Source: Schmidtea nova (taxonomy: Eukaryota). From it: 64,000 bases of DNA. Within the stretch, counting starts at the first letter, position 1, and every line of letters starts with the position of its first letter. The notes under the pieces are model-generated. The model ran no database searches. It was not told where the DNA came from and was given only the letters and a program-made list of their open reading frames with translations. Location of the stretch: positions 386,632,001-386,696,000 of the forward strand of contig CM097883.1 in NCBI GenBank assembly GCA_044892505.1, read 5' to 3'. Of the stretch, positions 4,829 to 18,251 are shown in pieces. The translations under genes were made by a program, and so were the position numbers.

Positions 4829-4865
4829 CGGGGTCATCGAACACCATGCCTGTTCGATTACCCCG
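4829..4865 (+). ncRNA. Conserved stem-loop in the LTR with an invariant CATGCC loop (cis-acting RNA element)
   Basis: CGGGGT-C-ATCGAACA-[CCATGCC]-TGTTCGAT-T-ACCCCG. Homologous hairpins with different stems but the same loop core at 18963-18999 (+), 23779-23826 (-) and 28709-28738 (-, weaker stem). Confidence 0.65.
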
Positions 4866-5039
4866 TACCCAGTAATATTTTATTTGGATAATTGTATATT
4901 ATGTCATTATTGTCATATTATTTATGAATATTATTATTTTTTATCACTATTATTTATTTTCTTTTATTGTCACAAATTGCCGTTTAAAATCACAATGATA
5001 TATATTATAAAAAGATAAATAAATAAAAATTTTTTTTTT

Positions 5040-5215
5040 CCATACCCCCTGAAGCCCGTGTCTGGCCTTGTGCCGATCGAGTGGAAGTAGCCTGAGCGGA
5101 TCGCTGGTTCGATACGTAAATCGATCAGTCCATTTGTCCGAGTTCAGGTGATTAGCCTAACCATCCATGCTCACTTCATCCCAACTGGGGAACAGTGGCT
5201 TGGCCCAAGGCAAGG
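5040..5215 (+). ncRNA. ~175-nt multi-stem structured RNA element in the LTR, class unknown
   Basis: GC-rich island conserved in all LTR lineages (19175-19350 +, 23417-23588 -, 28323-28492 -) with indels and compensatory pairs: CCTT/AAGG, TAGCC/GGCT, GGAT/ATCC, a variable hairpin, and TCCC/GGGA. Confidence 0.55.
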
Positions 5216-15105: not shown

Positions 15106-15225
15106 GAGAATAAAAACAACGAAAACGAAGACGAAAATAAAGAGAACAAGAATGGACAAGAAAATTCCAACTATGAAAATCGAACGGTATGTCTACTTAA
15201 AAATCCAGGTAAAAATACAATAATT

Positions 15226-17151
15226 ATGACAATATTATTGACAATGTTGAATTGGGTGAAAGCAATTGCTTACATATTTGATCAGAGGAGAGCAGAGGCG
15301 AGAATAGTTACAGATACAGAAAATATATGGATAACGAATATCAAAGGAGAGGTAATAATTAAAATATGTACAGTTGCAATACGGAAAAATGGAGTCAGTG
15401 ATCACCAGAAATGCATAAGAACAGCATTAGCAATAGGAGAAGAACAAAAGATCGAAAAACTCGAATCAGGAACAACATATATAATATGTGTATATCGAAC
15501 AAATCAAATAAGAGCAATCTGTGCAGCTAAAGAAATGATTACGAAAATGGGAAACGAGAGGAACAAGCCAGAAAAAATACAAAGTGTCACAAAAACCCCA
15601 ATAGATGAAAATGAAGAAGAAAACGAAGAAGAAGAGCAAGATAAAAAGGCTATGATGACGATCCAGAACAAAACAACAATAGAAGTGAAAGAAAAAGAAA
15701 TGATGGTAACAAACAATGTGAGAGAGCCTATAACTCAAATTTGTTGGATAAAAACCATCCATATGCAAAATAAGGACAGACAATTATCGTGTAAATTTCA
15801 AATGACAGGCCAAAATGGAAAATTCAGAATACCAGGATTGAAGCCAGGAACAAGCTACACGATATGCATAAGAAGAATATGGACACAAAAACTATGTCTA
15901 GAAAAACTCACCAAGGAAATCATAACGACAACTACAACAACCAGTGGAACAACTACTTATTACCCTCTGATAGTAGAAACGAAATCCACGGAAATAATAC
16001 TAATAAACAACCATGACGAAGTAATCAAAAAGGTTTGTTGGAGAAAGGTCGATATGAATAGTGGGCTTGACAACCCTAGCAAATGTTATCAACAGTCAGT
16101 AAAGGGAAAGGAACAAATGATAATCAAAGAGTTAGAATCAAAAACAACGTATCTAATATGCATATGGAGAACTTTAGTCCCAATTTGTCAAGAACACACC
16201 ACGACAGAACAAATAATAACAAGCACAGAAAGCGGGAGAGAACCGGATGAAAAAGCAATAAGACTCCCAAGAGCAACAATAACTGTAACAGAAAAACCAA
16301 CGATAGTCAAAGGTTACAGAAAAGAAATAGAAATATCAATCACTCCAAACCAAATACAAAAAGAAACCGAAAAATTCTTTCAAAATGATATTATAAAAGT
16401 CAAAAACGTACAAGGACATCTTATTGCTAGAATATGCATTTATGAAGTAAAACTACAACAAGAAAAGTGTAAAAGTGTGAGCAATAAAGAAGAAAAATCA
16501 TTTATTGAAGAAGAGGAATATTATGTAGCCGGATGGGAACGAGGAACTAAATACCGGGTATGCCTCTACAAAAAATTAAATGAACATCCAACATGTCAAT
16601 TTATTTCAAAATTACCTAGACGAGTAGACGATACCAGAAAATTCAGTACAGAAGATCAAATACTAACAACAAAACCAACAGTTTATAATAAATATATATC
16701 GGAGGAAGAAGCCGAACGAATAATTCAAGGAGGGAGACCGATCAAAATCGTACAAACAACAACGGAATCTCCAACAACAATATCAGCAGCAGTAGAAGAA
16801 TCAAAAATAGCAATCAAAATGATATGGATAACTGCCGGAATAATAGGCGCAATATTGGTTTTGATTCTCACACAACATGCAAAAATCACTGGAAGATGTA
16901 AAAGAAAACCGAAAAGAAAGAGACAATGGCCAAGCATCGAGAAGTTCGAATATGGAATCAGTTTAGAAGAAGTAAAGACGGAAGACGAATATGAGATATG
17001 CAATGGATCAGAATTCAATGGAATGTGGATGCAAGGACTACCACCAACGATAAATCCGTCAATAATAGAAGCAGATATATATCGAACTACAAATGAATTA
17101 TATGGGGGAATGCGAAACCTATATTTCGGCCCTCAGGAGACGTTGGTGTAA
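15226..17151 (+). CDS. 641-aa type I membrane protein in the env position: weak signal peptide, 4 FN3-like repeats, Thr/Pro stalk, TM helix, cytoplasmic tail
   Basis: Four repeats ending LESGTTYIICV, LKPGTSYTICI, LESKTTYLICI and WERGTKYRVCL. TM IKMIWITAGIIGAILVLIL, followed by basic RCKRKPKRKR. ORF is intact. Confidence 0.8.
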   Translation: MTILLTMLNWVKAIAYIFDQRRAEARIVTDTENIWITNIKGEVIIKICTVAIRKNGVSDHQKCIRTALAIGEEQKIEKLESGTTYIICVYRTNQIRAICAAKEMITKMGNERNKPEKIQSVTKTPIDENEEENEEEEQDKKAMMTIQNKTTIEVKEKEMMVTNNVREPITQICWIKTIHMQNKDRQLSCKFQMTGQNGKFRIPGLKPGTSYTICIRRIWTQKLCLEKLTKEIITTTTTTSGTTTYYPLIVETKSTEIILINNHDEVIKKVCWRKVDMNSGLDNPSKCYQQSVKGKEQMIIKELESKTTYLICIWRTLVPICQEHTTTEQIITSTESGREPDEKAIRLPRATITVTEKPTIVKGYRKEIEISITPNQIQKETEKFFQNDIIKVKNVQGHLIARICIYEVKLQQEKCKSVSNKEEKSFIEEEEYYVAGWERGTKYRVCLYKKLNEHPTCQFISKLPRRVDDTRKFSTEDQILTTKPTVYNKYISEEEAERIIQGGRPIKIVQTTTESPTTISAAVEESKIAIKMIWITAGIIGAILVLILTQHAKITGRCKRKPKRKRQWPSIEKFEYGISLEEVKTEDEYEICNGSEFNGMWMQGLPPTINPSIIEADIYRTTNELYGGMRNLYFGPQETLV

Positions 17152-18251
17152 CAAACGGAACAAAGTGTAAATAATGTACAAAATATATTATAATAAAAGT
17201 ATGATTATTTGTATTATAAAAAAAAAAAAAAAAAAAACTGGTCGAAATAAATTAAAGAGATCATTTAAAGTCAAAGTCAAGCTTGGTCGCAGAAAAATTG
17301 CCATTAAAAAAAAAATGAATCGGAAAGCCAGAAAAACATTTGAGTAAATCAGAAAAAATAGAGAATAAAAAGACCGAACATCAACAAAAATTATCAAACA
17401 TCAGGACCAGACAAATCAGAAAGTCAATGAAATCGAAACAATCCAAACCAGAAAAGTGAAGCAGAAACCTAAGTTAAATCAAGAGAAATTTGAAAGAAAC
17501 AATTAAAAGCAATAATGCGAAAAAGGAGCCAACAAAATCTTAAAACAAAGCTCCAATCAAGAGAAAAATCAAACCTTTGAAGCAAGAACCAAAATCCCCA
17601 CCTACGATCAATCAAATTCCAGAACAATTACCTTAATAAATCGTCCAATGAATCGAGATCAGATAATCTATGAAAGAATGGACAAAGTCAAATGATGAAC
17701 TACGAGCGGTCACATCCGAAAACCCGAATTATATGATCCAAATCAAGACCGAACTGAGAAAAAATTACGGAGCATATTCAATCACCTTATAATCGCTCCG
17801 TGCTATTAGCCAATGAATTGTCAACTATGTCAACCAAAGCGGAACAATCCCCAAGACGACTCAGAAAACGAGAAACAAATCCTCAATTTACAATTAAACA
17901 ACCAATACAATACTATTCCTCAAGTTCCAGAATATAAACAATTTAACTGAACTTTATAAAACTTTTATCCGAGTCGTTGTAGACTCATATTGAACTTTGA
18001 TTAGCCGCTGTAGGCACATATATAACATTATATTTAATTTTTTTTTGCTTGCGAGTCGATGTAGACTCATATGTATACGTTTTAACTTTTTATTAATTTT
18101 TATCACTTTTTATTTTTATTGTCGCGAATGGCATGATCACGACCAAGTAGCTCGTGTATAATGTACAACCTTTTGACCTTTGATTAGTCTTGGTTCTTAA
18201 CCCCTCTGAGAAATTGCGGGACGCAATTTTTTCGGGCCCCCGAGTATTTTA

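Follow-up and report, generated by a model that had tools for sequence, protein, structure and literature searches.

We analysed a window of 64,000 nucleotides of Schmidtea nova (contig CM097883.1, positions 386,632,001 to 386,696,000), in which a Burro-like long terminal repeat (LTR) retrotransposon of a lineage that we name W spans 4118–26134. The LTRs of this lineage present the same loop core, CATGCC, on stems of very different sequence, and a conserved complement to it of 6–8 nt, GGCATGA, lies in the 3′ untranslated region (UTR) about 120 nt ahead of the 3′ LTR. The sequences point to a genuine cis signal, confined to this lineage and of a type already known, for which the UTR motif is a candidate partner only. 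Our preferred but tentative reading, to which we give slightly less than even chances, is that the loop pairs with a single-stranded GGCAUGA, perhaps alternating with the D-arm of the primer tRNA, and so unites the repeated region (R) with the 3′ end of the RNA, or two RNAs with each other.

An invariant loop on changing LTR stems

Self-comparison together with the sequence placed a 5′ LTR at 4118–7742, an internal region up to 18251 and then a split 3′ LTR, whose two parts (18252–20432 and 24691–26134) are 99.6% identical to the 5′ LTR by self-comparison. The LTR features are the following.

4118–7742 (+): 5′ LTR, 3.6 kb, TG...CA termini, from self-comparison with the ends read
4725–4757 (+): TATA box at 4725–4732 and TCAG initiator-like motif at 4754–4757; predicted start about 4756
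4828–4866 (+): LTR hairpin 1, loop CCATGCC at 4844–4850; −26.7 kcal/mol, z −5.32
5022–5042 (+): AATAAA, then CA 14 nt downstream; predicted R end, inferred
5036–5215 (+): conserved structured block, likely start of the unique 5′ region (U5); 9 of 50 predicted pairs with double changes in three LTRs
18252–26134 (+): 3′ LTR, interrupted by a solo LTR; second hairpin copy, CATGCC at 18979–18984
20433–24690 (−): solo LTR2, a sister type inside the 3′ LTR, with a 4-bp target duplication; hairpin loop at 23807–23798
27500–29521 (−): older solo LTR3, start at 29521, far end unmapped; hairpin loop at 28729–28722

An earlier, sequence-only reading of this DNA had proposed that three diverged LTR types keep a constant loop core on differing stems. 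This was borne out: all three loops are present and fold as loops, those of the solo LTRs reading CATCATGCCT (LTR2) and ATCATGCC (LTR3) on the minus strand. Hairpin 1 and the LTR2 hairpin (hairpin 2, z −4.76) each beat 200 of 200 shuffles, while hairpin 3, in the decayed LTR3 copy, is not beyond chance (z −0.86, 39 of 200 shuffles as good). Opening of the hairpin 1 loop has a predicted cost of 0.01 kcal/mol and the loops of strong-stem types are predicted open, as is expected of the first partner in a kissing-loop pair.

Over all loci fetched, 148 W-type promoter sites were collected, a set with overlapping loci in which young copies are over-represented; a candidate loop was found in 141 and exact CATGCC in 113. 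Grouped by their stem arms at 80%, the CATGCC sites form 24 clusters; in 12 of these the stem has −12 kcal/mol or lower and the core is mostly unpaired, which by eye makes about ten types. The presence of CATGCC at 113/148 sites, in the loop of about ten stem types, is strong evidence that the loop letters are under selection. The commonest loop is TCATGCC, which complements GGCATGA across all 7 nt; in one further stem type it is kept in 14 of 30 decayed copies. At some loci (L008, L239, L259, L275, L278 and L315) the lower 5′ arm of the stem carries GG(C/T)ATG or GCATG, the complement of the loop, and an alternative fold is possible there.

A transcription start downstream of 4865 would have spoken against the proposal, as the sequence-only reading recognized; the predicted start, about 4756, is upstream, so that the hairpin would sit about 75 nt into the transcript, and the same TATA and TCAG motifs recur in LTR2 and LTR3. 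Among 87 distinct starts of the conserved block, 64 have a poly(A)-type hexamer within the 45 nt ahead of them, compared with 37 of 261 control windows; the count was made on AT-rich DNA, with one hexamer variant added post hoc and a few non-LTR matches included. With the predicted start upstream and the hexamer enriched ahead of the block that follows, the hairpin probably belongs to R and would then be at both RNA ends; the contact therefore need not be a 5′-3′ one. Of the long-range 5′-3′ signal first proposed, a constant loop with a conserved complement stands, and a strict 5′-3′ geometry is not required; the tRNA D-arm is moreover a second candidate partner.

A conserved complement ahead of the 3′ LTR

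The partner proposed by the sequence-only reading was a 3′ hairpin.

18121–18143 (+): stem-loop of the sequence-only reading, weak, with GGCATGAT at 18130–18137

The inverted repeat is present, with one C-A mismatch and 109 nt ahead of the 3′ LTR, and it complements the LTR loop over 6 nt in the element's own LTR and over 8 nt in LTR2; in LTR3, too, the loop reads ATCATGCC. The plus strand of the element has a single GGCATG, at 18130. In shuffles of the last 200 nt, GGCATG arose in 1.2% and GGCATGA in 0.5%, and 0.09 and 0.04 occurrences, respectively, are expected by chance in the whole 1.1-kb 3′ UTR.

The motif was counted in other copies, drawn from similarity-ranked matches rather than from an unbiased genome-wide tally. 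GGCATG was present in 30/30 copies chosen by likeness to the UTR and in 16/16 3′ LTRs from 30 loci chosen by likeness to LTR2. All 46 young copies with a 3′ UTR kept GGCATGA (30 of them selected by likeness to that UTR). Among 60 old copies, 72–83% alike upstream, the UTR was found in 56 and the motif region was gap-free in 51, of which 33 kept GGCATGA. A 3′ side absent or variable in other copies under a fixed LTR loop, which would have spoken against the proposal, is not outright what these counts show. Position 18129, directly 5′ of the GG, is the one site of its block that varies freely (A 17, C 24, gap 13, G 1, T 1; n = 56); it is where the LTR loop would end, and this base would have no loop partner. 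The three LTR types of the window are no independent tests of the partner because all have nearly the same 3′ UTR.

Covariation and lineage specificity

Several results weigh against a pairing of loop and UTR motif. Covariation between the two, the check suggested at the outset, was not established in young and old W copies taken together. A single locus, L244, carried a double change (AGCATGA with TCATGCT); both changes are common transitions, they are absent from its 29 nearest LTR relatives, and no second (5′) LTR was found within 40 kb. Six old copies with a readable loop (L246, L264, L278, L281, L286 and L235) had a changed UTR motif without a matching loop change, although such uncompensated changes may post-date insertion. 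The motif does not stand out in its surroundings, the whole UTR block at 18120–18176 (60 nt) being about 83–100% conserved per site, and the two G residues of GGCATGA show transition rates in old copies (12% and 11%) that are among the highest, the median being 5.5%. In favour of pairing, helices through the loop core with the UTR measured 6–11 bp (summed p 0.017; shuffle p for the UTR match 0.005–0.017), but the p values are for a single motif chosen after inspection. An alignment test over whole regions, 18 in number and itself too permissive, gave non-significant results for UTR and tRNA alike. Finally, seven other LTR types (A1, A2, B1–B4 and C) had neither a CATGCC loop nor GGCATG in the last 190 nt.

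Two sets of candidate covariation leads were rejected: five CATGTC LTRs and one CATACC LTR had no own 3′ UTR within 20 kb, and L276 and L277 (GGTATGA) had lost the hairpin region. Both motifs hardly vary in amplified subfamilies.

The seven other LTR types have the same terminal hairpin, and GC-rich hairpins at the same LTR position. An analogous loop-UTR pair was sought in families A, B and C by eye and with scripts, on a partial cognate table, and nothing beyond matches of 4–6 nt was found. Conservation of GGCATG in related subfamilies, which the sequence-only reading proposed to check, extends through W but not to the seven other types. Judged from these comparisons, the pair is specific to W: complementary 5′ and 3′ sequences conserved within the family, of the kind known as CYC, are found at a length of 6–8 nt in this lineage only.

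With covariation not found, the loop could be a sequence-specific protein site, for Gag/nucleocapsid or a host factor, in the manner of the trans-activation response (TAR) element, the 3′ complement being coincidental. This account, which we hold to be unlikely though still worth serious weight, explains the invariance of the loop on changing stems without any partner, and fits the GC-rich hairpins kept at this place in related families, where a UCAC loop is constant in A1 and A2 on differing stems. It must however leave to chance both the 7-nt complement (0.5% in the last 200 nt, about 4% over the whole UTR) and the complementarity to tRNA.

The primer tRNA as a second candidate partner

7753–7774 (+): primer binding site (PBS), 22-nt complement of the tRNA-Pro(UGG) 3′ end, 10 nt after the LTR; tRNA gene in genome G000

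The D-arm of tRNA-Pro(UGG) reads GGGUAUGAU, close to GGCAUGAU of the UTR, and the loop is complementary to it as well, which is a new observation. Helices through the loop core with tRNA-Pro reached 7–18 bp with one wobble in 10/10 hairpin types (summed shuffle p 0.0054, core alone 0.067), and 0 bp with tRNA-Lys and tRNA-Arg. The W loop thereby shares with CYC-type signals a 5′ sequence complementary to the primer D-arm. Long tRNA-Pro matches belong to older hairpin types, the youngest having 7–9 bp. The invariant G of the loop would form G-C with the UTR versus G-U with the tRNA, which suggests that it suits the UTR better; CATACC, which would perfect the tRNA match, was seen in 2/148 sites and 1/30 decayed copies and in no strong-stem lineage.

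The loop could accordingly be an extra primer-annealing box that catches the D-arm and anticodon stem of PBS-annealed tRNA-Pro, bridging the 3-kb leader or reaching the 3′ copy of R, comparable to the split PBS of Ty3. That tRNA-Pro is the primer follows from the PBS match and from its genes in G000; the best hairpin types have p values of 0.0003 and <0.00005, and the duplexes of older types reach −22 to −27 kcal/mol. Yet the invariant G only wobbles with the tRNA, the youngest and most amplified types keep 7–9 bp with energies no better than for control tRNAs, families A–C use or likely use the same primer without having the loop, and neither the core alone nor the whole region (best p 0.053) was significant. 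We therefore find this explanation improbable as the sole role of the loop. A double match, to UTR and primer D-arm, has a precedent, because Ty1 CYC5 is described as complementary to both CYC3 and the dihydrouridine (DHU) stem of the primer tRNA (PMC4974528).

The tRNA-Pro(UGG) genes lie in a 308-bp tandem array (L230, G000:C1 near 459.6 Mb) with about 1,090 matches genome-wide; in some copies of the array the anticodon is changed to TAT.

Competing folds around the 3′ motif

18136–18159 (+): competing 3′ UTR hairpin, ATCACGA arm with TCGTG arm at 18152–18156; position of the ATCAC/GTGAT hairpin in other Burro families
18211–18229 (+): terminal hairpin with GGA loop, common to all Burro-like families sampled

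The main argument of the sequence-only reading was the placement of both complements in loops. It holds for the LTR loop, which is open; the stem at 18121–18143 did not prove to be a stable hairpin (−4.5 kcal/mol, z +1.08, 169 of 200 shuffles as good). Over five window sizes its pair probabilities were 0.03–0.37, versus 0.17–0.66 and 0.11–0.35 for two competing stems, 18152–18156 being able to pair with either the 3′ or the 5′ arm of the 18121–18143 stem. Of 51 old copies, 33 had all pairs of this stem intact, and 39 and 29 those of the two competing stems, respectively. By these predictions the second partner does not sit in a stable hairpin loop.

On these grounds a true kiss of the LTR loop with that of the 18121–18143 hairpin, as the sequence-only reading proposed, is quite unlikely. 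The stem can form (probability up to 0.37), GGCATG is cheap to open (0.7–2.1 kcal/mol) and all 6 stem pairs persist in 33/51 old copies, but this is the least stable of three competing folds, compensatory stem changes were not seen, at least two old copies (L246 and L255) share a disrupted 5′ arm, and the rival stem, kept in 39/51 copies, matches the hairpin of other families. In families A, B and C an ATCAC/GTGAT hairpin stands about as far from the terminal hairpin, and the only C locus carries a double change in it. The second W stem probably corresponds to this hairpin, in which case GGCAUG would be left unpaired next to the stem. Opening of the UTR motif has a predicted cost of 0.7–2.5 kcal/mol, for a predicted −9.8 kcal/mol of the 7-bp loop-UTR duplex. 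A strict loop-loop kiss is therefore unlikely, the 3′ hairpin being weak and in competition with two other folds, and pairing of the loop with a single strand would fit better.

The GGA-loop terminal hairpin (18211–18229; also L140, L170, L171 and L180) is the one 3′ sequence common to all families sampled, whose LTRs are otherwise unalignable.

A simple model of the preferred pairing would have the (U)CAUGCC loop, held on many different stems, base-pair with a GGCAUGA near the RNA 3′ end that is predicted to be mostly single-stranded next to a hairpin and not itself looped out. This 7-bp contact would draw R to the 3′ end, whether in a single RNA or between two molecules, and might serve primer activation, strand transfer, or co-packaging of copies lacking reverse transcriptase (RT) with their own RT-bearing lineage; the same loop may alternately hold the D-arm of tRNA-Pro. 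The constancy of the loop would then follow from the fixed 3′ block.

Retroviral dimerization initiation sites (DIS) carry a self-complementary palindrome and make a loop contact of 6–7 nt. Contact length and energy are similar for the W loop, which lacks a 6-nt self-complementary sequence, its palindrome being CATG only, and has a separate partner instead. Self-dimerization through CAUG, or a DNA-level half-site of p53 type (RRRCWWGYYY), scarcely deserves credence: CATG is palindromic and followed by pyrimidines in all types, but 4 bp of self-complementarity leave the invariant CC unexplained, the base before CATG is usually a T that breaks the purine triplet, and a DNA site needs no hairpin.

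Complementarity between the PBS and the polypurine tract position

18234–18251 (+): purine-poor GC stretch and 10-nt spacer at the usual position of the polypurine tract (PPT), complementary to the PBS and its spacer

No polypurine tract was found ahead of the 3′ LTR, the longest purine run in the last 60 nt being 6 nt. The stretch at 18234–18251 together with the LTR start (18234–18258) is complementary to the PBS, its spacer and the LTR end (7736–7774), with a predicted duplex of −27.6 to −30 kcal/mol; the equivalent duplex of family A has −33 kcal/mol. The usual LTR-PBS spacer is 2 nt. Here the spacers are longer and match their 3′ mirror spacers at 10/10 nt in W (four PBS contexts) and 6/6 nt in A (one PBS context). 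Cognate pairs of PBS and PPT-position sequence score no better by energy than non-cognate ones. If the RNA circularizes, this pairing would be the stronger candidate for it than the loop-UTR pair, and it would compete with primer annealing.

A more far-reaching possibility, which we consider unlikely, is that the RNA 3′ end imitates the primer tRNA twice, GGCAUGAU resembling the D-arm and competing for the R loop, and the purine-poor stretch resembling the acceptor end and pairing with the PBS, with spacers matched on both sides. The RNA would then switch between a self-paired circle and a tRNA-loaded form, and the plus strand would start without a polypurine tract.

The element, its relatives and its neighbourhood

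13195–13602 (+): integrase fragment, broken upstream, stop at 13603
13606–17151 (+): open reading frame for the integrase C-terminus and ankyrin, then one for fibronectin-III and hydrophobic segments; Burro-like cargo

The window copy has the features of a Burro-like Ty3/gypsy element: multi-kb LTRs, a tRNA PBS and a gypsy integrase, with ankyrin in its own cargo and protease, BIR, RING and MATH-TRAF domains in relatives with its LTR and UTR. The label refers to architecture and cargo as described for Burro, not to sequence comparison with the published Burro-1 to -4. RT was not found in its unmasked internal region (915 bases masked), and with it the giant Gag-Pol polyprotein is lacking there. 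Family A in G000, whose integrase is 85% identical to that of the window in amino acids, has open frames of up to about 5,700 aa and a giant Gag-Pol polyprotein with RT; older RT-bearing sister copies of the window's own lineage (94% nucleotide identity in integrase) are also present in G000 and have both the LTR loop and GGCATGA. As RT is missing from the unmasked part while family A and the older W sisters have it, the window copy is a young, non-autonomous member of W.

Very young RT-less elements of 21–25 kb are abundant (L091–L096), with open RING, protease-ankyrin, TRAF, BIR-RING (IAP-like) and coiled-coil frames; in these loci one UTR is joined with differing internal cargo and swapped LTR types. 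The family A LTR (L141, L143) itself holds open frames of about 200–220 aa. A tandem array of 21-bp units lies within the element at 12058–12470 and recurs in relatives. Outside this material, a scan of metagenome contigs with the 19-nt terminal hairpin gave 15 matches, all unrelated, and a protein search in other organisms gave only 22 generic gypsy integrases without context.

The 180-nt structured block at the likely start of U5 recurs with compensatory changes at 23410–23595 (−) and 28316–28498 (−), and is a candidate packaging signal or internal ribosome entry site. The order of its motifs is similar to that in a second block, which lies close to the LTR end in all Burro-like families sampled. 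Rfam gave no family for it (5 chance matches only), and a likeness of the block to 5S rRNA was not supported; similarly, no family was found in the window at 4000–30000 (2 chance matches), and 7 loci of related families had 0 matches.

Elsewhere in the window, nine tandem units of about 1,338 bp (52743–63993) each carry a frame of 295 aa with a match to the Dcp1 decapping family (E 5e-12). Another frame, of 560 aa (2310–3992), had no match in Pfam and has a 52-bp direct repeat on either side (1928–1979 and 3943–3994). Penelope-like RT/GIY-YIG remnants lie at 46474–47583 (−) and 30243–31297, and a Tc5/pogo-type transposase frame at 37896–38639. A hAT-like fragment (43408–44049) and a ribonucleotide-reductase-like one (45101–45628) were named by eye.

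Comparison with known systems and significance

Ty1 CYC5/CYC3 (PMC4974528, PMC7969010) resemble the W pair in that a short 5′ sequence complements one near the 3′ end and also the primer tRNA, reportedly through the DHU stem in Ty1 and the D-arm of tRNA-Pro in W. CYC5 lies downstream of the PBS, whereas the W loop lies about 2.9 kb upstream of it, likely in R, and unlike CYC5/CYC3 the W pair has only 6–8 nt and is a prediction from sequence. Ty1 SL1a/SL3a (PMC5454406) similarly have 7 complementary nt, one partner at a 5′ hairpin apex, and lineage specificity: they are not kept in Ty2 and were proposed to keep families apart in packaging. Both are however 5′ and at hairpin apices, while the W partner is 3′ and likely without a stable loop. 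In the 5′-3′ bipartite PBS of Ty3 (PMC11381356, PMC4974528) we see a parallel to a PBS-annealed tRNA that could bridge to a box at the other RNA end, although the W PBS is a full 22-nt match and its second box would be the LTR hairpin loop. Planarian Burro elements (PMC6431247) share with W and family A multi-kb LTRs, the giant polyprotein (about 5,600 aa in family A) and ankyrin, BIR, RING and MATH-TRAF cargo, but the window copy and its young relatives lack RT. In the literature covered, from which the original Burro paper was absent, no description of cis RNA signals in Burro elements was found, a limit that could bear on the PBS and PPT.

Detailed accounts of long-range RNA signals in LTR retrotransposons come almost only from yeast Ty1 and Ty3, and our literature search gave no animal example. 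A loop of 7 nt that stays fixed across about ten different stems is a clear evolutionary trace of a site with a function, here in giant animal elements, in which, with a leader of 3 kb, the uniting of R, primer and 3′ end is no trivial matter. If a pair of this sort is specific to one lineage, it could also account for the matching of abundant RT-less copies with the helper lineage to which they belong.

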